From positions 1,089 through 65,088 of the forward strand of contig CAZUVH010000002.1 of the NCBI GenBank assembly GCA_964623775.1: a DNA stretch of 64,000 bases, written 5' to 3'. The position numbers and the translations under genes are program-made. How positions within the stretch are numbered: position 1 is the first letter of the stretch; each line of letters begins with the position of its first letter. Below the pieces are notes generated by a model. The model saw only the letters and a program-made list of their open reading frames with translations, did not search any database and was not told where the DNA came from. Of the stretch, positions 8,688-33,805 are shown piece by piece. The DNA comes from an uncultured Candidatus Saccharibacteria bacterium. Its GTDB lineage: Bacteria > Patescibacteriota > Minisyncoccia > Phycocordibacterales > UBA2100.

Positions 8688-9674
8688 TCATTTCTTTAAT
8701 TTTCGCAGCGCATACCCGCCATACTTTTTTGCAAGATCATGTTGTCCGAGCATGGTGCGGTATGCCCATTGGATGAGCGCTCCGTGCAGCGCGTACGCGT
8801 CTACGATATGCGATGGGATAGTGCCATACGCTTTTTCGCGCGCGTCGTGGACGCTCTTCGGGAGTGATGCATCGCCCAATACTTCCGCATCGACTGCGGT
8901 GCGTATAAGTGCAAAATGCGGATCGTTCACGCGCCAATGCTCGTTGGGAGGCATGATGTCGATAAAAGAAGCCTTACCTCCCAGCCAGAGAATATTGTCG
9001 GAATTCGTATCCTTCGCCACACGATAATCGTCGGAAGTAAATTCATTAAAGTACGGATCATTCGCGATCGTGTCAGAAAGCTTGCGTATCGCCTCACTGC
9101 GTACCTCAGCGGGTATTTCGGTGTGTAGCTCGGAGAGCCATTCGTCCAAATCCCGGAGCGATTGAATACGAAGATCTGTGTACGAGCGGTCGAAGATATG
9201 CGAAAGGGAATCGCGCTTTTCGCGAGTGAGATTCTCAAGATTTTCAATCATCGCCTCGGCTATTGCCGTCATTGTCTCTCCATCGATTGCCCCGGCAGGT
9301 AAGAGGCGAGTGAGATTTGACGAGGTGTCGATATTTTTCATCTCAATCGCCCAGTCGTGCGCGGTATCGAGATCCGTAAGAGAAAGAGTTTCGTCGAAGC
9401 CGTGTAGCTTTGTATATACTTGAGGAGCAGCGATGTTGTTCCAGGTAAAGTCTTCGATGTAAAAACGCTTACGGAATGACGGTTCAGCGTACTGATTTCG
9501 ATGCTTATAGACCTTAATCACTCGATCTCCAAAGAAAAAAAGCTTCGCAAGGACGGTCTCGATTATGCGGTCGGGCATTCCAAAAGAAGTCTGTCCTGAT
9601 TCTAGGGCCTCGATAAGCTTCATTTGATACAGTATACCCTCACACCAATAGTTCCGGTATGTCATATATCTCAA
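8688..9674 (-). CDS. hypothetical protein (possible kinase/APH-like phosphotransferase fold)
   Basis: 328 aa; SFIDIMPPNE...DPHFAL loosely resembles the IDxE...DPxxDLA segment of APH/CotS kinases. Weak. Confidence 0.4.
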   Translation of the reverse strand: MRYMTYRNYWCEGILYQMKLIEALESGQTSFGMPDRIIETVLAKLFFFGDRVIKVYKHRNQYAEPSFRKRFYIEDFTWNNIAAPQVYTKLHGFDETLSLTDLDTAHDWAIEMKNIDTSSNLTRLLPAGAIDGETMTAIAEAMIENLENLTREKRDSLSHIFDRSYTDLRIQSLRDLDEWLSELHTEIPAEVRSEAIRKLSDTIANDPYFNEFTSDDYRVAKDTNSDNILWLGGKASFIDIMPPNEHWRVNDPHFALIRTAVDAEVLGDASLPKSVHDAREKAYGTIPSHIVDAYALHGALIQWAYRTMLGQHDLAKKYGGYALRKLKK

Positions 9675-9784
9675 AAAACATTCGCAATTCGGATTTGACT
9701 TATTTTCGAAAAAATTCAGCTATTGGTGTCAGGGTATACAAAAAAGATCGAGCGCAGACGACTAATCGTCTGCGCTCGTTCCCA

Positions 9785-10339
9785 TCAAAGACCAAGCCTC
9801 TGTTTTTCCCAATTCAGCGTGTTTTTGAGATCGGTCACACCTCGATGTGTCGGGATGTACAAAGTCCCAGCCTTGTATAGTTCCCGCCCACGCCTGTACT
9901 GGTCGGGCTGAAACTCTACGGGCAAATCTTCATTCGTCTGCAGGTTGTTGTCGTAATCGGCGCACTCTATCTTGAGCGGCTCAACTTCGCCTTGTGCAGC
10001 TAGCGCGATGACTCTTCGGACCACTTCTTCAGAGCCCTCGCGCGTGTCGCCCAGCTTCGGATCATACGAGCATTGCTCGACAAGATATCTGACCCTCGCA
10101 TTGAAGAGTCGCTGGATCATTGTGGGGCTCATCGCCGTATCTTCGATCCCATCGTGAAAAAATCCAGCCACCACGGTCTCGAGATTGCAGCGATACCTTA
10201 TCAGGGCAAGTCCGACGCCGAGGGAGTGTGTGTACGTTGGTACGGGCACGGGCCCGCGACGTACCTGGTCGCCAAATGCGTTAATGACGTGGTCGATCGC
10301 CGCTGTGACGGCATCACCGTAGCTCATCCCATGTTTCAC
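9785..10339 (-). CDS. HD-domain protein, SpoT/RelA-type (p)ppGpp hydrolase-like (small alarmone hydrolase-like)
   Basis: H...FFHDGIEDT motif characteristic of the RSH hydrolase HD domain; no synthetase domain. Start assumed at the GTG with GGAGG RBS (the ORF track extends to 10351). Confidence 0.65.
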   Translation of the reverse strand: MKHGMSYGDAVTAAIDHVINAFGDQVRRGPVPVPTYTHSLGVGLALIRYRCNLETVVAGFFHDGIEDTAMSPTMIQRLFNARVRYLVEQCSYDPKLGDTREGSEEVVRRVIALAAQGEVEPLKIECADYDNNLQTNEDLPVEFQPDQYRRGRELYKAGTLYIPTHRGVTDLKNTLNWEKQRLGL

Positions 10340-10457
10340 CGCAGCCTCCAATTTTATGAATTTTATGCTGAAAATACTTTACTATAAAATACGGTTTTGT
10401 AAAGGTATAAAAAAACCGCGATGCGTTGCTCTGTTGAGCATTGCATCGCGGCCTGAA

Positions 10458-11081
10458 TCAGCAACCGGAGACCTCGTCTTCCTCGAGATCGTCCTCGTCT
10501 TCGAAGATATCGTCCTTGAGGGGGGTGGTCTTCAGATTGGTTCGCTGCGTGACGACATCCTTTTGGACGCCGACGTCGTACATCGACACAATCATCTCAT
10601 TTCCGCCTTCGAGGCGAGATGCAGCAGCTTCGAGGAGTCGCACGAGCGTCTCGCGACCGCTCGGAAGGTGACCGATGGTAACGATGCCTCGGTAAGCAAA
10701 CACATCATTTTCGTCTCCGCCGCGCTCCCTGATATCAAGATAGCGTACCTGGGCATCAAGGAGATTGAGAGCCGCATTGATCCGCGTGGAGTCCTTGCTT
10801 CCGGGCGAGTGCAGCATCATCACCACGACGTTACTCGTACCAAATGTGAATCGCTTCAACTTCACCTTGATCCCGAAATGCCGCACCGCTGCGCGATAGA
10901 TGTGCCCGATCGGGTCACAAATGACCGCTTCCTGGCTAAATACAGAGACGGGGTTGCCGGCGCGGTCCGTCGACAGGTTGTTGGTCGAATAATCTGCCGG
11001 ATTCTTGAGAGATTCGGCGGCCAAGAGGGCGATTGCCCTCAAATCCGAAGCGGGGATGTCTCTTGCGACGTACTGGTTCAT
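10458..11081 (-). CDS. hypothetical protein with acidic C-terminal tail
   Basis: 207-aa ORF with strong AAGGGAG RBS; tail DDIFEDEDDLEEDEVSGC; no confident family. Confidence 0.5.
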   Translation of the reverse strand: MNQYVARDIPASDLRAIALLAAESLKNPADYSTNNLSTDRAGNPVSVFSQEAVICDPIGHIYRAAVRHFGIKVKLKRFTFGTSNVVVMMLHSPGSKDSTRINAALNLLDAQVRYLDIRERGGDENDVFAYRGIVTIGHLPSGRETLVRLLEAAASRLEGGNEMIVSMYDVGVQKDVVTQRTNLKTTPLKDDIFEDEDDLEEDEVSGC

Positions 11082-12799: not shown

Positions 12800-13357
12800 T
12801 TAATGTGGAATAAAATGGGATTTTTCGAATCCGTTCAGCGCTTCGTTACGATGAGCGATTGTCAGAATCTTTTTGTTGAAAGCTTCCTCAAAATATCGCT
12901 TGCCTCTGAAGACGGTGTAATTGTTGGGCAAATGGGCCGTGTGTTCTACCACGTGGCCGATAGCGTTGACGCTCAGATTGATCGTCCGAACGATCTGAGT
13001 GGCCCAGCACCTACCGTTTTCCGATGGAGGTATTTTTTTCAAGCTCCAAGTGAGAAGAGTGCCTTCACTTGTTGTGCGTAGGCATTCCGCCCATAACGAA
13101 AGCTTACTTGCCGGCTTTGCCTCCATACCGAGGAAGGTTTCGATAGGTCCAAGATCCTGGGTAATCGATATTTTGTCGAACTGCAGGTTCCACTCGTCTT
13201 TCACCTGATAAAGCCATGGCATCTCGCCTAGCTTTCGAAGATTTTCCTCCACAAGACGGTCGATCCCGATCCTAATTCTGGCAGCCTTATTCCAAAGACT
13301 CATCGTAATCTCCTGCGCATGCCGCGCTTTGAACCCATCCGGGTCTGGCTGGTGCAC
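12800..13357 (-). CDS. hypothetical protein
   Basis: 185-aa ORF; no motifs recognised. Confidence 0.4.
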   Translation of the reverse strand: MHQPDPDGFKARHAQEITMSLWNKAARIRIGIDRLVEENLRKLGEMPWLYQVKDEWNLQFDKISITQDLGPIETFLGMEAKPASKLSLWAECLRTTSEGTLLTWSLKKIPPSENGRCWATQIVRTINLSVNAIGHVVEHTAHLPNNYTVFRGKRYFEEAFNKKILTIAHRNEALNGFEKSHFIPH

Positions 13358-13447: not shown

Positions 13448-14269
13448 ATGACCGAAGCCGGACCTGTAATCGATGAACATGCTGCCGAGGCACTTGCTAC
13501 GACCGCAGAATCTGCGGCGCATTCTGATGGCGGCATACACGTATCGATCGCCGCTGAAAAACTTGGTGAATTCATAGGTATTCCGATCACCAATGCACTC
13601 GTCACGAGCTGGATCGTCATCGGACTCCTTGTGGTATTTGCATTCCTCCTGCGCAGCAGACTCTCGCTCATACCGGGGAAATTGCAGGTACTTATCGAAG
13701 ACGCTTTTTCATTTGTATACGACTATGTCGCCGAGACGCTTGAGAGCGCGGACATGGCGCGCCGTTTTTTCCCGCTGCTCATGACCATCTTCCTTTTTAT
13801 ATTTGTGGGCAACATGCTCCACTTCATTCCGGGTGTCGGGTCGCTCACGTACGACGGTCATCCATTTTTGCGTGCCCCCAATACCGATCTCACCGTACCA
13901 CTCGTGCTCGCGATCATCTCTTTTTTCGTCATCGAATTCACCGGCATCTTCGCAATCGGCGTGTGGAAGTACGGACAGAAGTTTCTCGTCAATCCCTTCC
14001 GTGATCCGATCGGCGCCATGGTTGGATTCATCGAGATCATCGGCGAACTCGTACGCGTCGTTTCGCTCTCGTTCCGACTCTTCGGCAACATTCTCGCCGG
14101 CGAAATCATTATCGCCGTAGCGATCTTTTTCGCGCCGTATTTGGGCCCGGTACCGCTCATGATGTTTGAGGTATTCATCGGATTCCTCCAGGCTGCTATC
14201 TTCGCGCTCCTCACGCTCTTTTTCATCAAACTCGCTATCGCAGAGCCCCACGGCGCCGAAGCGCATTAA
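13448..14269 (+). CDS. atpB: F0F1 ATP synthase subunit a
   Basis: Multi-TM protein ending LFGNILAGEII...PLMMFEVFIGFLQAAIFALLTLFFIKLAIAEPHGAEAH with the conserved essential Arg region (SLSFRLFGN). Confidence 0.9.
   Translation: MTEAGPVIDEHAAEALATTAESAAHSDGGIHVSIAAEKLGEFIGIPITNALVTSWIVIGLLVVFAFLLRSRLSLIPGKLQVLIEDAFSFVYDYVAETLESADMARRFFPLLMTIFLFIFVGNMLHFIPGVGSLTYDGHPFLRAPNTDLTVPLVLAIISFFVIEFTGIFAIGVWKYGQKFLVNPFRDPIGAMVGFIEIIGELVRVVSLSFRLFGNILAGEIIIAVAIFFAPYLGPVPLMMFEVFIGFLQAAIFALLTLFFIKLAIAEPHGAEAH
14153..14269 (+). repeat. direct repeat copy 1 (native 3' end of atpB)
   Basis: 117 bp, about 96% identical to 14885..15001. Confidence 0.85.
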
Positions 14270-14282
14270 GTACATAAAGAAA

Positions 14283-14308
14283 AAGACTCCGCGATTCATC
14301 GCAGAGCC
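14283..14308 (-). terminator. intrinsic terminator for cassette gene 14318..14797
   Basis: ctctgcga-tgaa-tcgcggag hairpin with T-run on the minus strand. Confidence 0.45.
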
Positions 14309-14317
14309 TTTGAGGTA

Positions 14318-14797
14318 TCAATTATGCATTCCGGCTTTTTTTGAGGGGAACAGGCGTACGAACGTACCCCAAATAACAAAGAGCAATAAGGTTCCGAATA
14401 TGATCGTCGTGATAGTAAATCCGATACCCGTCATATCTCCCGCAAAAAACCTCATCCAGATGTTGATGACAGCAGCTCCCAGCCACGATATCGCAAAAGG
14501 TGCTGCCCAGGGTGCAATTTTCTCACGATCTTCTGTAAGTTGTGCTGAGGCTACACCTACGCCGGTCATATTGAAGTAAATGCCGAGACAAAAAGCAACG
14601 GCAATAATTCCCACGAGTCCCCAAAAGAGTGTGACAATGATCTGAATTGCAGCCGTTATGCCCATTGAAAGCGGCATAAAATGCGGATTCAAATTATAAT
14701 CGACCGGAGGAATCAATGGGTAGAAGCCGGTGATTATCCAGATGAGAAGAAGACACATGGCCAGACTCTTCAGAAAATTCGTTGCGAACATCGTCAT
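14318..14797 (-). CDS. integral membrane protein (hypothetical), cassette inserted between atpB and atpE
   Basis: 159 aa with four to five TM helices; GGAG RBS; candidate TTGCAA-17-TATACC promoter upstream on the minus strand. Confidence 0.55.
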   Translation of the reverse strand: MTMFATNFLKSLAMCLLLIWIITGFYPLIPPVDYNLNPHFMPLSMGITAAIQIIVTLFWGLVGIIAVAFCLGIYFNMTGVGVASAQLTEDREKIAPWAAPFAISWLGAAVINIWMRFFAGDMTGIGFTITTIIFGTLLLFVIWGTFVRLFPSKKAGMHN

Positions 14798-14884
14798 TCT
14801 CCAATCGGTGAAGGGTTATTTCCTATAAAAGGTATACGTGGCACGTGTTCGTTTTGCAAGGCACATGGATGTGCATTAAAAAAG

Positions 14885-15001
14885 CCGCTCATGATGTTTG
14901 AGGTATTCATCGGATTCCTCCAGGCTGCCATCTTCGCGCTCCTCACGCTTTTCTTCATCAAGCTCGCTATCGCAGAGCCCCACGGCGCCGAAGCGCACTA
15001 A
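14885..15001 (+). repeat. direct repeat copy 2: displaced duplicate of atpB 3' end (last ~38 codons plus stop), remnant
   Basis: Encodes MMFEVFIGFLQAAIFALLTLFFIKLAIAEPHGAEAH*, identical in protein to the atpB C-terminus. All five nt differences are synonymous. Confidence 0.85.
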
Positions 15002-15013
15002 TACAAAGGCCGC

Positions 15014-15704
<691 letters not shown>

Positions 15705-15727
15705 TCAGGTGACTCATCGTTTTTCTT

Positions 15728-16174
15728 ATGAGCGAATTGTTCGCAGCGTTTGGTCTGAATTGGAAGCTCCTCTTAATCCAGGGGCTCAATTTCGGTGCAC
15801 TGCTCGCAATACTTTCGTACCTCCTCTACAAACCTGTCTTTCGTATGCTCGACGAACGCCAGAAGAAAATAGCCGAGGGAGTGAAGACGGCCGAAGCTGC
15901 GGCAGGTAAGCTCGAGAGCGCAAAACACGAGAGCGAAGCGATCGTGGGCAAGGCCGCTCGTGAAGCCGAGGAGCTCGTCTCAAACGCACGCTCGCATGCT
16001 CAAGATCGTGGCGACGAAATCGTACGCGCGGCTGAAGAGCGCGCAGCATCGACGCTCAAGGACGCTCAGATGAAAGCCGACGAAGCCAAACGCCAGGCGC
16101 TTCTCGAGAGTCAGAAAGATATCGCGCGCGCCGCAATGCTCGCCGCTGAGAAAATTCTTCGCGAAAAAGCATAA
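15728..16174 (+). CDS. atpF: F0F1 ATP synthase subunit b
   Basis: Single N-terminal TM then long charged helix; operon position. Confidence 0.85.
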   Translation: MSELFAAFGLNWKLLLIQGLNFGALLAILSYLLYKPVFRMLDERQKKIAEGVKTAEAAAGKLESAKHESEAIVGKAAREAEELVSNARSHAQDRGDEIVRAAEERAASTLKDAQMKADEAKRQALLESQKDIARAAMLAAEKILREKA

Positions 16175-16176
16175 GT

Positions 16177-16572
16177 ATGGAAACCGCCTACGCACAAGCA
16201 CTTTGGAAGATGATCGACGGTGGCATGGATCATGCCAAGGCCGTAAAATCCCTCCATCAAATTCTTGTCGCGAAGGGCCGCTCGGTTTTGATGCCTCGAA
16301 TCGCTCGGGCATTCGAGCGCATTGCTGCGCGGGAGATCGCGCGAAGCGGCATGACTCTCACCGTCGCCCATGCAAAAGACGAGCAGCATGCAAAGACCGC
16401 CGCAAAAAAGGCGCTCAGCGCATTGCATGCAGATATGCCGAAGCATTTGCATCTGAAGGTAGACGACAGTTTGATTGGCGGATGGAGGCTTGAAGGCGCC
16501 GGCCATCTCATAGACGCGAGTTATAAGAAACAACTGCTCTCGATTTACGGCGCAGCCACGAAAGCAGAATAA
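16177..16572 (+). CDS. atpH: F0F1 ATP synthase subunit delta (short, 131 aa)
   Basis: YAQALW start and C-terminal SLIGGWRLEGAGHLIDASYKKQL typical of OSCP/delta; operon position. Confidence 0.8.
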   Translation: METAYAQALWKMIDGGMDHAKAVKSLHQILVAKGRSVLMPRIARAFERIAAREIARSGMTLTVAHAKDEQHAKTAAKKALSALHADMPKHLHLKVDDSLIGGWRLEGAGHLIDASYKKQLLSIYGAATKAE

Positions 16573-16588
16573 TAATTAATTTTTTATC

Positions 16589-18187
16589 ATGGACTCATCA
16601 ACCGTAGCGAAGATCGTCAAAGAGATCGAACAGTTCAAGCCCGCGCACGAAAGTGCGCACGTCGGACGCGTGACGAGCGTCGGCGACGGCGTCGTCGCGA
16701 TCGACGGCCTCTCCAAGGCGGTGATGAGCGAAATCATTGTTTTTGAGGAATCTGTCGGTAAATCTCTCAAGGAAGCGATGTCCGCCCGAGGCGGATCCGC
16801 CGGGGGCGGACATGTCGAGGGAGAGCTCTTCGGACTCATTTTGAATCTCGAGGAAGACGGCGTCCGTGCGGCGGTGCTTGGCGACACGGCACGCGTAGCG
16901 GAAGGCATGACCGTAAAATCATCGGGCAGAATTCTTTCCGTCCCCTCTGGCGACGAGCTTCTCGGCCGCGTGGTCAACGCACTCGGCGAGCCAATCGACG
17001 GCAAAGGACCTTTCAAGAATGTCACCATGATGCCTGTCGAACGCGAAGCGTTTGGCGTCATCGATCGCAAATCAGTATCAGTGCCGATGGCCACAGGCAT
17101 CAAGGCAATCGACGCGATGGTCCCGATTGGTCGCGGCCAGCGCGAGCTCATCATCGGCGACCGTGGCACCGGCAAGACGACTATTGCAATCGACACCATC
17201 ATCAACCAGCGCAACGAACCCGCTGAGAAGCGCCCGATCTGTATCTATGTAGCGATCGGTCAGAAGGAATCGAAGACCGCGCGCATCATGCAGCAGCTTC
17301 GCGAAGAGCACGCACTCGACTACACGATTATCGTCGACGCGCCCGCATCAGCTCCCGCCGCGCTCCAATTCCTAGCTCCATTTTCTGGCGTCGCGATCGG
17401 TGAATATTTCATGGAGAAGGGCAGGGATGTACTCATCATCTACGACGACCTCTCCAAGCAGGCAGTCGCGTACCGCGAGCTCTCGCTCCTCCTTCGTCGT
17501 CCGCCGGGCCGCGAAGCGTATCCGGGCGACATCTTCTACCTCCACTCGCGCCTCCTCGAGCGCGCGGCGTGTCTCTCGAAAGAGAAGGGCGGCGGCTCGA
17601 TCACAGCGCTTCCGATCATCGAGACGCAAGATGGCGACGTGTCCGGCTATATTCCGACCAACGTAATCTCGATCACCGACGGTCAGATCTTCTTGATTCC
17701 CGAGCTCTTCAACAAAGGCATTCGCCCTGCGATTGATGTCGGTATCTCCGTCTCGCGTGTCGGCTCATCGGCGCAGACCAAGGCCACCAAGGCGGTCGCG
17801 GGCGGTCTCAAGCTCACGCTGGCGCAATTCCGCGATCTTGAAGCATTTATGCAGTTTGCCCAGGATCTCGACAAGGCGACGGCCGAGCAGATTGGTGTCG
17901 GTCAGCGCATGGTGGAACTCCTCAAGCAGAAAAATGGCGCACCGATCCCGATGGAAATGCAGGTGGCGATACTTTTTGCTGCAGGTCAGAAGCTCTTTGC
18001 CACCGTGCCCGTATCGCGCATCTCCGAAGCCGAGGCGAAGCTCACTGCGTTTCTCGACGGACAAGCTACAGAGACGCTCGCGGAGATCAAAAAGACCGCC
18101 GTGCTTTCCGATGAATTGAAAGCGAAACTCAACAAAGCATTCGAAGAATTCAAGCTCGCACACCCCGACCTCTTCGAGACGAAGTAA
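16589..18187 (+). CDS. atpA: F0F1 ATP synthase subunit alpha
   Basis: P-loop GDRGTGKTTIAIDTIINQ and alpha-specific conserved blocks; 532 aa. Confidence 0.95.
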   Translation: MDSSTVAKIVKEIEQFKPAHESAHVGRVTSVGDGVVAIDGLSKAVMSEIIVFEESVGKSLKEAMSARGGSAGGGHVEGELFGLILNLEEDGVRAAVLGDTARVAEGMTVKSSGRILSVPSGDELLGRVVNALGEPIDGKGPFKNVTMMPVEREAFGVIDRKSVSVPMATGIKAIDAMVPIGRGQRELIIGDRGTGKTTIAIDTIINQRNEPAEKRPICIYVAIGQKESKTARIMQQLREEHALDYTIIVDAPASAPAALQFLAPFSGVAIGEYFMEKGRDVLIIYDDLSKQAVAYRELSLLLRRPPGREAYPGDIFYLHSRLLERAACLSKEKGGGSITALPIIETQDGDVSGYIPTNVISITDGQIFLIPELFNKGIRPAIDVGISVSRVGSSAQTKATKAVAGGLKLTLAQFRDLEAFMQFAQDLDKATAEQIGVGQRMVELLKQKNGAPIPMEMQVAILFAAGQKLFATVPVSRISEAEAKLTAFLDGQATETLAEIKKTAVLSDELKAKLNKAFEEFKLAHPDLFETK

Positions 18188-18192
18188 AAACT

Positions 18193-18591
18193 ATGTTCGA
18201 GAGATTCCCCAAAAAACCCAAAGATGATGATGAGCATGACCCTGCGGAGGAATTGACCAACGAAGACCTTGAAAAAATTGCAGAGGAGGCCGCAAAGATG
18301 ACTCCTGACGAAAGGATGTATTTCACACGCGAAGAGATCGCTCAATCGCAAAATAAGATGCATTTTCAGCAGGAAAGAGTCGCACATCTGAACGCGCAGA
18401 TCGAAAACCTGAAGGAGCGCCTGCGATCACTAAGTGGGGCGGAAAAAGAATTTATTCAAAAACAACTCGATGAGAAAATCGCCCACCGCGACGAATACAG
18501 CGAAGCTATGGCGGAGCTTGAGGAAGATGTGGCTGAAGGTAAAGATGTTCTCGATAATCTCGAACAAAGCAACAAGAAGCATTTCAACTAA
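18193..18591 (+). CDS. acidic coiled-coil protein embedded in ATP synthase operon (hypothetical)
   Basis: 132 aa, starts 6 nt after the atpA stop and ends 3 nt before the atpG start; very acidic, heptad-like. Confidence 0.6.
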   Translation: MFERFPKKPKDDDEHDPAEELTNEDLEKIAEEAAKMTPDERMYFTREEIAQSQNKMHFQQERVAHLNAQIENLKERLRSLSGAEKEFIQKQLDEKIAHRDEYSEAMAELEEDVAEGKDVLDNLEQSNKKHFN

Positions 18592-19573: not shown

Positions 19574-21354
<1,781 letters not shown>

Positions 21355-24067: not shown

Positions 24068-24094
24068 AACGAGCGGTCGAAACCGCTCGTTTAT
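24068..24094 (+). terminator. intrinsic terminator
   Basis: acgagcggt-cgaaa-accgctcgt hairpin followed by ttta-tctt. Confidence 0.5.
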
Positions 24095-24099
24095 CTTGT

Positions 24100-24175
24100 G
24101 AGGATAGCGAGAGAAGTGAAAGTTTACTTTCACTTCCGAGCGACGCAGCAAGTAAAGGTTTATCCTTTCAGAATG
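24100..24175 (+). ncRNA. repeated structured element, copy A (two hairpins with TTTA loops flanking conserved CCGAGCGACGCAG)
   Basis: gaggatagcgagagaagtgaaag-ttta-ctttcacttc-cgagcgacgcag-caagtaaagg-ttta-tcctttc; paralogous copy at 33731..33805 with compensatory stem changes. Confidence 0.45.
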
Positions 24176-24400: not shown

Positions 24401-25495
24401 ATGAAAATCGGAATCGTCGGCCTCCCAAATGTTGGGAAATCAACGCTTTTTAACGCCCTTACTCGTAAGGGTGTCCTTGTAGCTAATTATCCATTTGCGA
24501 CCATCGACCCATCGGTTGGCGTTGTGGCGGTACCGGATTTTCGGCTCGATCGGCTCTCTGAAATGTCTCAAACGAAAAAGCGAGTGCCTGCAATCGTGGA
24601 ATTCGTGGATATCGCCGGATTGGTAAAGGGCGCTTCGGAAGGAGAGGGTCTGGGCAATCAATTCTTGCAGCACATTCGCGAAGTCGATGCGATCGCGGAA
24701 GTTGTCCGCATCTTTGATGACGAGGACGTGCATCATGTCGCCGGCTCAATCGATCCTCGCTACGATATCGAAATTATTGACCTCGAATTGGTGCAAGCTG
24801 ATTTGCAGTCGGCAGAAAAACGCCTCGATCGCGTGACGCGTGATTCGCGCGGTGGCGATAAGGATGCGCTTGCCGAAAAGGAGGTTCTCGAAAAGATCAT
24901 CCAGCCGCTCCGACAAGGAAAGGCGGCACGTACCGCGAACCTTACTGATGAGGAAAAAGCTATCGCGAAAGGTTTCCACTTCTTGACCATGAAGCCGATT
25001 CTCTACATCCTCAACCGCAAAAGCGGTGTCGTGAATATAGATGCTGAGAATGGCCAACGATGGCATGATTTGAAAAGTTTTCTAGACCAGAGCGACGCCA
25101 AGTACGTGGTCGTTGATGCGGGTGTAGAGAATGAGCTTGGCGATGTGCACGCTGATGAAAAAGCTGATTTCCGCCGCGAGCTTGGTGTCGCAGATGACGG
25201 CCTCGATGCACTCATCAAGGCTGGTTATGAGCTCCTTGATCTCATTTCCTTTTTCACGACAGGCGTAGAGGAGACACGCGCGTGGACGATTCATCGCGGC
25301 GACAAAGCACCGGATGCGGGTGCCGCGATCCACACGGATTTCAAAGATAAATTCATCCGGGCCGATACGATTCATTGGGACAAGCTGCTTGAAGTCGGTT
25401 CCTGGTCAAAGGCGCGAGAGAAGGGGATGGTCCGCTCGGAGGGTAAAGAATACGTCGTCCAAGACGGCGACGTCATGGAGTTTAAACACAGTTAA
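24401..25495 (+). CDS. ychF: ribosome-binding ATPase YchF (Obg-family GTPase)
   Basis: MKIGIVGLPNVGKSTLFNALT G1 motif, 364 aa, TGS-like C-terminus. Confidence 0.95.
   Translation: MKIGIVGLPNVGKSTLFNALTRKGVLVANYPFATIDPSVGVVAVPDFRLDRLSEMSQTKKRVPAIVEFVDIAGLVKGASEGEGLGNQFLQHIREVDAIAEVVRIFDDEDVHHVAGSIDPRYDIEIIDLELVQADLQSAEKRLDRVTRDSRGGDKDALAEKEVLEKIIQPLRQGKAARTANLTDEEKAIAKGFHFLTMKPILYILNRKSGVVNIDAENGQRWHDLKSFLDQSDAKYVVVDAGVENELGDVHADEKADFRRELGVADDGLDALIKAGYELLDLISFFTTGVEETRAWTIHRGDKAPDAGAAIHTDFKDKFIRADTIHWDKLLEVGSWSKAREKGMVRSEGKEYVVQDGDVMEFKHS
25405..25495 (+). repeat. direct repeat copy 1 (native 3' end of ychF)
   Basis: About 83-90 bp repeated at 25957..26045. Confidence 0.85.
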
Positions 25496-25502
25496 AAAAA
25501 CA

Positions 25503-25531
25503 GAGGCCTCCGTATGTATATACGGAGGCCA
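25503..25531. terminator. bidirectional intrinsic terminator shared by ychF and cassette gene
   Basis: gaggcctccgta-tgtata-tacggaggcc perfect hairpin flanked by A7 / T-rich runs. Confidence 0.65.
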
Positions 25532-25536
25532 TGGTG

Positions 25537-25881
25537 TTATTGGATCGGCACATGCTTGCCGTCGTCGATTCGCCAGGCTTTGTAGTGCCCATCGGCGTTG
25601 AGATCGTCGGCGTCAATGTAAATCGTCACGGACTCGAAATCATGGGCAACATACTTAGACGCTTTTTCTACCTTCTGATCTCGTCTTGCTAGAGCCATCT
25701 CCAGCGTGGCATGACGCTCGGGATCGATATGCCCACCCTTCCAAAGTAGGACTCGGTGGGCTGTCATGGTGCCCTTGGCAAACTCGATCATGCTGTTGAG
25801 CTGTTGCCCCCAGAATGTGTCTGCGATGTAGCTGCCATCAAGCTTCGTAACGACGAAGTATCGAGAATCAAGATCAAACAT
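25537..25881 (-). CDS. hypothetical soluble protein, cassette inserted after ychF
   Basis: 114-aa ORF; own promoter (TTGACT-16-TAAAAT on the minus strand) and terminator. Confidence 0.55.
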   Translation of the reverse strand: MFDLDSRYFVVTKLDGSYIADTFWGQQLNSMIEFAKGTMTAHRVLLWKGGHIDPERHATLEMALARRDQKVEKASKYVAHDFESVTIYIDADDLNADGHYKAWRIDDGKHVPIQ

Positions 25882-25914
25882 GCAGAGACCCTTTCGATGA
25901 GAAACTCTTTATGT

Positions 25915-25942
25915 ATTTTAGCACAAACATTCAATAAGTCAA
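25915..25942 (-). promoter_or_regulatory. sigma70-like promoter for cassette gene (TTGACT-16-TAAAAT)
   Basis: Reverse strand reads ttgact-tattgaatgtttgtgc-taaaat about 35 nt upstream of the ATG. Confidence 0.5.
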
Positions 25943-25956
25943 TTCATCGTCGTTGA

Positions 25957-26045
25957 CAAAAAAGCGAGAGAAGGGGATGGTCCGCTCGGAGGGTAAAGAA
26001 TACGTCGTCCAAGACGGCGATGTCATGGAGTTTAAGCATTCGTAG
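25957..26045 (+). repeat. direct repeat copy 2: displaced duplicate of ychF 3' end (last ~27 codons plus stop), remnant
   Basis: Encodes ...EKGMVRSEGKEYVVQDGDVMEFKHS*, identical in protein to the YchF C-terminus. Differences GAC/GAT, AAA/AAG, CAC/CAT, AGT/TCG, TAA/TAG are all synonymous. Confidence 0.85.
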
Positions 26046-26088: not shown

Positions 26089-26757
26089 ATGCCCCGATCT
26101 GCGGATTATTGGATCAAGGAATATAGTAAACGCGATGCTCTGTGGATTCATGATGGAAATCCGAAGCGTCCTCACGCACTCCTTACCTCGGGGAACCACT
26201 CCAACGGCTTCTTCAATAGTAGACCGGTGATTTCCGACACCCATTTACTTACAGAGGCAGCCTTCTGTCTACTCGACCATTTCTATCAGCAGGCCAGTGG
26301 AAACGTGATCATCAATGCTGTCGTGGGTCCTCAGACAGGGGCTACAAAATTGGCCGAATTGATTTGCGACTTACTTGTGCTGGGGACGCGCTATGATTGC
26401 GTCCACGTTTCTCCCGCAAAATCCGAAGTAGACGGCAAGAAAGTAATGGTCTTCAGTGATACGGAAGAAATTGCTATGCGCGGTAGGGCTGCAATCCTTT
26501 GCGAAGATGTGCTGACGACGGGTGGCAGTGTGGATCTCACTGCAGCGGCGGTCGAAAAGGCGGGCGGCACCGTTTTGCCGTACGTGCTCGTGCTTGTGAA
26601 TCGATCAGGTCTCACCGAGGTCAACGGCAAAAAAATCGTTGCACTGATTGATCGAGCGATGCCCATCTGGGAGCCGCATGAGTGTCCGCTCTGCAAGCAG
26701 GGCTCGGAGGCGCTGCGCCCCAAAGACAATTGGGCGCGACTGAACGCAGATTATTAA
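26089..26757 (+). CDS. phosphoribosyltransferase-domain protein (orotate PRTase-like)
   Basis: PRPP-binding motif AILCEDVLTTGGSV. Confidence 0.6.
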   Translation: MPRSADYWIKEYSKRDALWIHDGNPKRPHALLTSGNHSNGFFNSRPVISDTHLLTEAAFCLLDHFYQQASGNVIINAVVGPQTGATKLAELICDLLVLGTRYDCVHVSPAKSEVDGKKVMVFSDTEEIAMRGRAAILCEDVLTTGGSVDLTAAAVEKAGGTVLPYVLVLVNRSGLTEVNGKKIVALIDRAMPIWEPHECPLCKQGSEALRPKDNWARLNADY

Positions 26758-33712: not shown

Positions 33713-33730
33713 GCTTACCGTTTTTCTAAC

Positions 33731-33805
33731 GAGGATAGTGAGGGAAATGAATACGTGTTTTCATTTCCGAGCGACGCAGTCAGCAAGAGGTTTACCTCTT
33801 GAATA
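33731..33805 (+). ncRNA. repeated structured element, copy B
   Basis: gaggatagtgagggaaatgaa-tacgtgtt-ttcatttcc-gagcgacgcagt-cagcaagagg-ttta-cctcttg; shares conserved linker and hairpin architecture with copy A. Confidence 0.45.

Follow-up and report, generated by a model that had tools for sequence, protein, structure and literature searches.

Repeated 3' ends of atpB and ychF around small orphan genes in a Kaiserbacteria contig as candidate scars of additive recombination

The window analysed here, a stretch of 64,000 nucleotides (nt) from contig CAZUVH010000002.1, carries the 3' end of atpB, the gene for ATP synthase subunit a, twice. The first copy completes an intact atpB. The second lies downstream of a short cassette that holds a single small gene on the opposite strand, cas159, and it is followed by another small minus-strand gene, mem111, and by atpE. 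The same architecture recurs at ychF within the window. We propose, with slightly better than even confidence, that these repeats are 3'-end displacement scars left by homology-anchored additive recombination with DNA of a closely related lineage. In its genes, which include those of the atp operon, ychF and genes for aminoacyl-tRNA synthetases and the cell wall, the window is a stretch of an ordinary chromosome of the candidate phyla radiation (CPR). Relatives of its AtpB in a genome collection belong to Candidatus Kaiserbacteria and other Parcubacteria metagenome-assembled genomes and share 72–81% identity with it.

The repeated atpB end and the cassette behind it

The atpB repeat is direct, 96% identical between its copies and was returned by a repeat search of the window as its one direct repeat of 117 nt (Table 1). 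When both copies were aligned together with 60-nt flanks, similarity set in abruptly at CCGCTCATG and ended with the stop codon, and the flanking sequences were unrelated. Local alignment of the atpB end with the atpB-atpE spacer gave a score of 209, compared with 18.0 ± 1.9 and a maximum of 25 for shuffled sequences. Five of the 117 nt differ (GCT/GCC, CTC/CTT, TTT/TTC, AAA/AAG and CAT/CAC). Every one of these differences is synonymous, and the peptide encoded by either copy, PLMMFEVFIGFLQAAIFALLTLFFIKLAIAEPHGAEAH followed by the stop, corresponds to the last 38 residues of AtpB. The original prediction of a 117-bp duplication with five synonymous differences is thus confirmed by repeat search, alignment and codon comparison. 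The first 43 nt of the repeat are identical between the copies, all differences being distal, and the identity at third codon positions is 0.87. About 75% of the changes in a decaying duplicate are expected to alter the protein, and five silent changes out of five have a probability of P ~1e-3 if the second copy had decayed neutrally. The right junction of the distal copy, leading to the terminator, mem111 and atpE, is present with 100% identity in two Logan contigs from two other read sets (L001 and L002).

The cassette between the copies has a G+C content of 44.7%, compared with 51.7% for the window, and it was not present at any of the related atpB loci compared. The minus-strand gene that had been read from the sequence is indeed there, and four long helices are predicted for its product (residues 2-24, 41-78, 87-118 and 123-149) by a single-sequence AlphaFold2 model of low confidence (pLDDT 61); a second single-sequence AlphaFold model was likewise of low confidence (pLDDT 55). 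The terminator claimed for cas159 corresponds to a terminator-like site, and the terminator behind the second copy, the second minus-strand gene and the extended -10 element of atpE were all found as described. The cas159 promoter fared less well: its two hexamers are present in the sequence but do not pass the criteria of the promoter scan. Upstream of atpE, the promoter TGCTAGAAT is kept in relatives. The product of mem111 has two hydrophobic segments when the sequence is read by eye. A search of 5.8 billion proteins (5.8e9) returned no homologue of cas159 apart from itself; this gene is not an ancestral member of the atp operon, which the original prediction had named as a refuting case. 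A homologue search with mem111 also yielded the self-match only. None of cas159, mem111 and cas114, the last being the counterpart of cas159 in the ychF cassette, has a match in Pfam, PHROG or PADLOC, and no match to any of the three was found in viral contigs. Exact-protein look-ups with cas159 and atpB retrieved no contig, an Rfam search of the region gave no family, and the window contains no tRNA genes.

Table 1. Features of the atpB and ychF regions, in positions of the window
Feature	Position	Strand	Basis
atpB (ATP synthase subunit a), intact, 273 amino acids (aa)	13448..14269	+	PF00119, E = 8e-43; open reading frame (ORF)
Proximal atpB 3' end (last 38 codons and TAA), the functional end of atpB	14153..14269	+	repeat, alignment, codon comparison
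atpB cassette, 615 nt, with a single gene that has a candidate promoter and terminator of its own	14270..14884	-	sequence, alignment
Terminator-like hairpin and T-run of the cassette, 13 pairs (6 G-C), tail TTCTTTATGT	14282..14311	-	terminator scan
cas159, orphan gene for a 159-aa protein; likely start is the second ATG, at 14791	14318..14797	-	ORF list
Weak candidate promoter of cas159, TTGCAA-17-TATACC	14831..14859	-	read from sequence; fails consensus promoter scan
Distal, putatively displaced atpB 3' end; stop kept, no atpB body attached	14885..15001	+	repeat, alignment, codon comparison
Strong terminator 3' of the distal copy; hairpin 15005-15029 and T-run, 11 pairs (7 G-C), tail TTTCTTTCTC	15005..15039	+	terminator scan
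mem111, second orphan gene, 111 aa	15014..15349	-	ORF; promoter TTGACT-16-TAGAGT at 15402-15375
atpE, preceded by an extended -10 promoter of its own, TGgTATTAT, at 15425-15433	15477..15704	+	sequence
ychF, intact, 364 aa	24401..25495	+	PF01926, PF06071
Proximal ychF 3' end (...AAA CAC AGT TAA)	25414..25495	+	repeat, codon comparison
Second cassette, 468 nt	25496..25963	-	sequence
Terminator of the ychF cassette	25530-25505	-	terminator scan
cas114, 114-aa orphan gene of the ychF cassette	25537-25881	-	ORF
Promoter of cas114, TTGACT-16-TAAAAT with TG	25942-25915	-	promoter scan
Distal, putatively displaced ychF 3' end (...AAG CAT TCG TAG), before a conserved spacer and the phosphoribosyltransferase (PRTase) gene (26089-26757)	25964..26045	+	synteny

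Further cases at ychF and in related loci

At ychF the last 82 nt of the gene recur beyond the second cassette. Seven of them differ, in the codon pairs GAC/GAT, AAA/AAG, CAC/CAT and AGT/TCG, the last of which encodes serine in both copies with all three bases changed, and in the stop codons TAA/TAG. The recurrence of the architecture at ychF, as claimed originally, therefore stands, with a repeat around a minus-strand ORF and with all codon changes silent. Under neutral decay the three silent codon changes and the stop-codon switch have a probability of 2.6e-3, the serine switch not being counted. As at atpB, an identical part of the repeat, here the first 56 nt, precedes differences that are all distal. 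Identity at third codon positions is 0.81 between the ychF copies and ~0.55 to the nearest ychF relative, L003. Since the values of 0.87 and 0.81 within the pairs far exceed ~0.55, the second allele would have come from a much closer lineage than L003, a close relative that was probably of the same species or genus. Sliding-window identity to L003 revealed no recombination breakpoint in ychF. One candidate donor of the ychF end, P0103, has a protein-identical C-terminus and was rejected because its DNA is only ~85% identical. A search of 1.84e9 representatives gave no homologue of cas114, and a weak match to it (P0127) was uninformative. A window-wide protein-level scan of all ORF termini yielded no terminal duplication beyond those of atpB and ychF.

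Both distal copies contain an in-frame ATG a few bases in, which would open ORFs of 36 aa at atpB (14891-15001) and 22 aa at ychF (25977-26045). Read by eye, the former matches the final transmembrane helix of subunit a. These small ORFs have no convincing ribosome-binding site and are probably due to chance. Separately, a 79-nt repeat with 72% identity and an internal hairpin GAAGTGAAAGTTTACTTTCACTTC occurs at 24088-24166, upstream of ychF, and at 33719-33797; an Rfam search of a region covering the first of these copies gave no match.

A third case was found at atpG in L020 (Ga0209542_10012356, 9515-10632), which belongs to an unrelated assembly. There the end of atpG is repeated over ~48 nt about 1 kb further on, past an insert of 1022 nt. 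This insert encodes a 107-aa membrane protein and a toxin-antitoxin pair of the MntA/HepT type, made up of a nucleotidyltransferase resembling MntA (PF18765/PF01909) and the ribonuclease HepT (PF01934). The second atpG end, TREVSEITSGIEAM, has lost its stop codon, as is expected of a relic. The proximal copy (ATA ACA AGT ... AAA TAA) is of the type found in the working atpG of L009, and the distal copy (ATC ACC TCC ... CGA) of the type found in the working atpG of L032, L033 and L026. Sequence 3' of the distal copy matches that 3' of atpG in L032 and L009. The longest perfect block between the L020 copies is 17 nt, with differences spread throughout. To judge from these allele types, the two copies descend from two functional alleles, of which the resident one appears to have been displaced.

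In addition, L003 (Logan ERR15087765, 2477-2537) carries a decayed ychF-end remnant, GCGAAGCAGTGGAATTTAAGCATTCC, 32 nt past the stop of its working ychF and before the conserved spacer. It could be either the relic of an earlier displacement whose cassette was lost or a small tandem duplication. The related loci, ~300 kb in all, thus contributed one event and one remnant; a search for C-terminal duplications in ~308 kb of them returned nothing beyond L020 atpG and a scaffold artefact in L009 that is treated below. A decayed second atpB end was also sought in nine occupied atpB-atpE spacers and two shorter ones, with no significant result.

Silent-only differences, the switch between the serine codon families AGT and TCG, the TAA/TAG switch and the two allele types in L020 all argue that the copies in each pair descend from two functional alleles. 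This agrees with the original prediction that the second atpB end is not a decaying random duplicate, and it suggests that one repeat of each pair is donor-derived rather than a duplicated target.

Empty sites and the polarity of the copies

The comparison covered ~28 related atpB loci from genome and metagenome collections. In at least nine relatives (L004, L008, L014, L017, L018, L020 and L031-33) atpE follows atpB after 69–104 nt. Ten further lineages have an atpB-atpE spacer of 400–630 nt with one small minus-strand ORF, which is a different and unrelated one in each lineage. Nine contigs with an identical AtpE (L046-L054) contain, according to BLAST, no DNA of cas159 or mem111 between atpB and atpE; contigs with identical AtpE share 77–84% DNA identity. 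Scans of genomes and metagenomes with AtpB gave nothing closer than ~87% amino-acid identity. At ychF, the PRTase gene lies 40 nt downstream of the gene in L044, whose YchF is 89% identical at the protein level, and another minus-strand gene follows ychF in L043.

Empty sites, which the original prediction had named as a check, therefore exist at both loci. Both cassettes are insertions, because the relatives have atpB next to atpE and L044 has ychF next to the PRTase gene. The atpB-atpE spacer and the spacer downstream of ychF are hot spots in which small, lineage-specific convergent genes come and go, and none of these genes is an ancestral operon member. About half of the relatives' spacers hold a small minus-strand ORF, and an atpB with a convergent small gene behind it is therefore a normal arrangement for a donor in this clade.

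Synteny suggests which copy is resident. Two spacers are orthologous to the one that lies 3' of the distal ychF copy, namely that behind ychF in L044 and that behind the remnant in L003 (P < 0.001 compared with shuffled sequences). This places the distal ychF copy in the ancestral position, as seems to be the case for atpG in L020 as well. Since in these two cases the ancestral flank directly adjoins the distal copy, the proximal, cassette-joined copy is most likely the incoming one. For atpB the polarity is taken from the analogy with ychF and L020 atpG, because neither a donor nor a near-identical cassette-free genome was found, and the proximal copy is probably the incoming one here too. 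Codon choice in 23 relatives does not discriminate which atpB copy is native. The donor idea of the original prediction is thus upheld in its core, two functional alleles, but its assignment of the distal copy to the donor is opposed by synteny at ychF and L020 atpG.

Several observations concern the same spacers. In L005, L006, L016, L019, L023, L025 and L028 a conserved leader lies ~80 nt upstream of the atpE promoter, before unrelated minus-strand ORFs. It has a hairpin, GAAGCTC-CGC-GAGCTTC, with the compensatory variants GAAGTTT/AAACTTC and GAAGTCT/AGACTTC. The similarity of the 75-nt leader to the atpB 3' end is collinear but weak (P = 0.03–0.08; consensus P = 0.03) and suggestive; the leader may be an ancient displaced atpB end. 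In L015 (894-1039) the atpB stop is directly followed by a hairpin, TCCCGCCCTTTC...GAAAGGGCGGGA, whose 12-bp stem is perfect, and the last ~18 nt of atpB recur past it, before the conserved atpE promoter. L026 has a 34-nt hairpin-bearing direct repeat, ACACTCTCGGTTTCTTAGGAACGTGAGAGTATG, at 1297-1330 and 1625-1658 around an ORF of 96 aa, in which a helix-turn-helix-like pattern is suggested by eye. The repeat could mark a further cassette boundary, or it could be a repeated element of regulation or termination.

Elsewhere in the atp operon of the window, plus-strand ORFs of 132 and 123 aa without a convincing family match lie between atpA and atpG (18193-18591) and between atpG and atpD (19574-19945). 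In relatives the atpA-atpG gap measures 7–120 nt and holds no ORF, and the atpG-atpD spacer measures 43–970 nt. Displaced gene ends were not detected at the sites of these two ORFs. A 167-aa minus-strand ORF without a family match (12800-13303) lies between a hydrolase gene and atpB. In a syntenic contig of the Joint Genome Institute (JGI; sample 3300071358), for which the gene list was used, the hydrolase gene, atpB and atpE on to atpG are adjacent, and the 167-aa ORF, cas159, mem111 and the 132-aa ORF are absent from it.

Explanations for the repeats and their relation to known systems

In the explanation that we favour, additive recombination anchored in the gene itself, a fragment from a closely related Kaiserbacteria lineage would have carried the end of atpB (and, separately, of ychF) together with that lineage's convergent downstream gene. 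The fragment would have paired with the resident gene via the common coding sequence. Donor gene end and cargo would then have been added, not swapped. For this, the other end of the fragment would have been linked to a point within the resident gene that lies 117 nt from the stop codon in atpB and 82 nt from it in ychF. The join could have been made by one-sided homologous recombination combined with an illegitimate join, similar to homology-facilitated illegitimate recombination (HFIR), or else the fragment could have been circularised and taken in through a single crossover. The target gene would have stayed intact and would use the incoming tail. The resident tail and its followers, the terminator and mem111, would have been pushed downstream, the tail as a non-functional relic, which would make mem111 an earlier occupant of the atpB-atpE spacer. 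Silent sites alone would differ between the copies because both had served as working ends of functional alleles up to the recent past. That duplicative joints alone are seen could be explained by selection, as the atpE promoter or the following gene would be lost if the joint lay further downstream. In L020 a crossover inside the repeat is unlikely, because perfect blocks do not exceed 17 nt, and this would favour an upstream anchor with an illegitimate join; the identical first 43 nt at atpB and 56 nt at ychF would allow either route. In this account we infer the donor, natural transformation as the route of uptake, the way in which the ends were joined and a clean RecA-mediated loss of the cassette via the direct repeats. 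The cargo consists of small membrane or soluble orphans. Patescibacteria encode genes for competence and homologous recombination, and Saccharibacteria are naturally transformable (PMC10633639, PMC12455944). HFIR or circular intermediates have also been proposed for like products in type VI secretion system (T6SS) and Rhs loci (PMC5361080, PMC2935791).

Several points weigh against this explanation. The searches yielded neither the donor nor a near-identical genome without the cassettes, and no other lineage could be shown to have the cargo beside its atpB or ychF, as cas159, mem111 and cas114 are all orphans. HFIR is reported to be rarer than ordinary recombination by orders of magnitude (PMC5361080), and still two fresh events would have to be accepted within one 64-kb window, compared with one event and one remnant in ~300 kb of related loci. 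For atpB alone, a mixed model in which half of the changes fell in the constrained copy gives P ~0.10, which is weakly significant, and the case therefore rests on the three loci jointly. Finally, the heptamer AAAAAAG (plus strand) ends both window cassettes at the distal joint (14878-14884 and 25957-25963). It occurs 25 times in the 64 kb, the probability of a chance coincidence is ~1e-3, and it could point to an enzymatic signature.

Such a signature would suit site-specific integration of miniature integrase-less elements (relics that can be mobilised in cis) by a tyrosine or serine recombinase that is encoded elsewhere and acts in trans, with the element bringing a replacement gene end. 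The resemblance to e14 at icd, described below, and the occurrence of two events in one 64-kb window speak for this alternative, which the original prediction had also raised as a site-specific element restoring the 3' end of its target. However, each of the two window inserts contains one ORF and has no integrase or transposase match in Pfam, PHROG or PADLOC, no recombinase is present in the 1022-nt insert of L020, and the genes near the inserts that were examined, in the annotated part of the window, included none either. A repeat search detected no inverted repeats flanking the inserts, the atpB and ychF cassettes have no common sequence that could serve as a site, and the target genes atpB, ychF and atpG are unrelated in sequence. 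The hairpins in the cassettes are terminators with T-runs only, with no attC-type site among them. Across ~45 related loci no second occupant with a duplicated end was found at these sites. The joint in L020 lacks AAAAAAG, and the heptamer may simply be the upstream A/T tract of the promoters. The site-specific element was not borne out on these grounds, and we rate it as unlikely.

A true long target duplication, in which the copies were first identical and one was later overwritten by homologous recombination with a related allele, has a precedent. Long duplications of variable length (direct repeats of 30–420 bp) without mobility genes are documented for restriction-modification units, as insertion with long target duplication (Nobusato et al. 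2000; Furuta, Abe and Kobayashi 2010, PMC2853133). The identical proximal parts of the atpB and ychF repeats, followed by distal differences, give these copies a mosaic look that would fit such overwriting. On the other hand, two events would be required at each of the three loci, the L020 copies differ throughout and represent two allele types, and overwriting of the repeat alone would need a tract that ends within tens of nucleotides of the cassette. We regard this course of events as distinctly unlikely.

An assembly artefact, in which two strain haplotypes of the region downstream of atpB (and of ychF) were set in tandem, has to be considered, since the source contig is metagenome-derived. 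L009 provides an example of such a false tandem: at 883-1100 a second atpB end, in tandem with part of an atpE, stands beside a run of 10 N, and it was rejected as a scaffolding artefact joining two strain variants. Moreover, L001 and L002 break inside the repeat, and cas159 was not recorded from those read sets. Yet the window has no N at the sites in question, and the joint of AAAAAAG with CCGCTCATG connects non-atpB sequence to the middle of the atpB end, a joint that no simple haplotype pair contains. Two instances of the architecture lie on the contig, and an unrelated assembly (L020) has one more. L001 and L002, which are 100% identical to 14968-17161, stop at 14968 with a 30-nt overlap with a 35-nt shared stretch. 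Logan assemblies use 31-mers, for which 30 nt equals k-1, and a break of this kind is expected at a real repeat. We consider the artefact highly improbable. A synthetic, recoded-genome origin was dropped, as the context is an ordinary Kaiserbacteria chromosome.

Among known systems, insertion with long target duplication is the closest described class. The window shows its structural features: an empty site in relatives at both atpB and ychF, repeats longer than 30 bp (117 and 82 nt, with ~48 nt in L020) that are single-copy in the empty site, and inserts of 615 and 468 nt, below 20 kb, without a mobile-element gene. That class has been found mostly in naturally competent species, its repeats sometimes overlap gene 3' ends, their identities are, for example, 44/46 and 417/423, and its mechanism is open (PMC2853133). 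The present cases differ in their cargo of small orphan genes (MntA/HepT in L020) and in their host, a CPR bacterium. They also differ in that the repeats of the described class are treated as duplicated target, whereas here the silent differences and the L020 alleles suggest that one repeat is donor-derived.

The e14 prophage of E. coli K-12 shows how a similar scar is made by site-specific recombination. Over a length of 165 nt, the end of icd is distinguished from the icdC relic by 12 nt, which amount to nine synonymous codons and two Asp-to-Glu changes. As here, e14 and phage 21 supply a replacement 3' end for an essential gene and leave the old end as a relic on the far side, with mainly synonymous differences. 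However, e14 is a prophage of 15.2 kb with intE and xisE, the inserts considered here measure 615, 468 and 1022 nt (the last in L020) and carry no recombinase, and related elements did not recur at the same site in the related loci tested. Cis-mobilisable elements (CIMEs), which in Streptococcus thermophilus sit at the 3' end of the housekeeping gene fda, are short, integrase-less units between attL- and attR-like repeats. They derive from integrase-bearing integrative and conjugative elements at the same locus, with which they have att sites in common; unlike them, the cassettes described here have no integrase-bearing partner element that we could find. Transposons and insertion sequences are set apart by the absence of terminal inverted repeats here, by duplications of 117, 82 and ~48 nt instead of a fixed short length, and by the lack of a transposase match. 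Integron cassettes are set apart in that the hairpins found here are terminators, that a common sequence is missing and that the neighbouring genes examined included no integrase.

In Rhs C-terminal displacement and in the sequential displacement of effector-immunity modules of the Vibrio T6SS, incoming DNA brings part of the conserved gene together with one or more new genes behind it. Arrays arise in which the newest unit is proximal and the old 3' piece is shifted distally together with its partner (PMC2935791, PMC5361080). The order of copy 1, cas159, copy 2 and mem111 corresponds to this pattern of new proximal and old distal units. In the Rhs, contact-dependent inhibition and T6SS systems the tips are different toxin domains with immunity genes, whereas here they encode an identical AtpB or YchF peptide. 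In addition, the cargo in the window has no match to a toxin or immunity family (Pfam, PHROG, PADLOC), and the gain consists of the neighbouring gene only. The Rhs and T6SS loci are thus similar in their working, and membership is excluded because both tips encode the same housekeeping peptide. In fungal mitochondria, C-terminal duplicates of atp6 and cob are found next to homing-endonuclease ORFs of the GIY-YIG or LAGLIDADG type (e.g. PMC6279837). The order of a subunit a gene, one or more ORFs and a partial C-terminal duplicate is alike in both, but cas159 and cas114 have no endonuclease signature, and cas159 is a predicted four-helix hydrophobic protein. On present evidence the repeats represent a known kind of insertion scar. 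The CPR host, the essential target genes and the small orphan cargo are what is new, and a new kind of system is not indicated.

A more far-reaching idea, which we hold to be very unlikely, is that the cassettes are recombinase-independent mobile units addressed by homology, each made up of one accessory gene and the last 50–120 nt of an essential gene as its address. If this were true, recombination between the repeats would free a circle of 732 or 550 nt, which could enter related cells by natural transformation and integrate again at the same gene end. Each integration would recreate the duplication without ever damaging the target. Repeated rounds would build lineage-specific arrays of small genes within conserved CPR operons, and the insertions of restriction-modification genes with long target duplication would gain a mechanism as well.

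Independent of this idea, a donor-derived repeat is a testable clue to the mechanism of insertion with long target duplication. Repeats of this kind flag very recent horizontal acquisitions in metagenome-assembled genomes and are also sites at which contigs break. CPR bacteria, or Patescibacteria, have small genomes, few recognisable mobile elements and many lineage-specific orphan genes, and scars such as those at atpB and ychF would capture gene gain in the act. In our favoured explanation, a neighbour's accessory gene would be added behind an essential gene, with the coding sequence of that gene as the recombination anchor and without its disruption.

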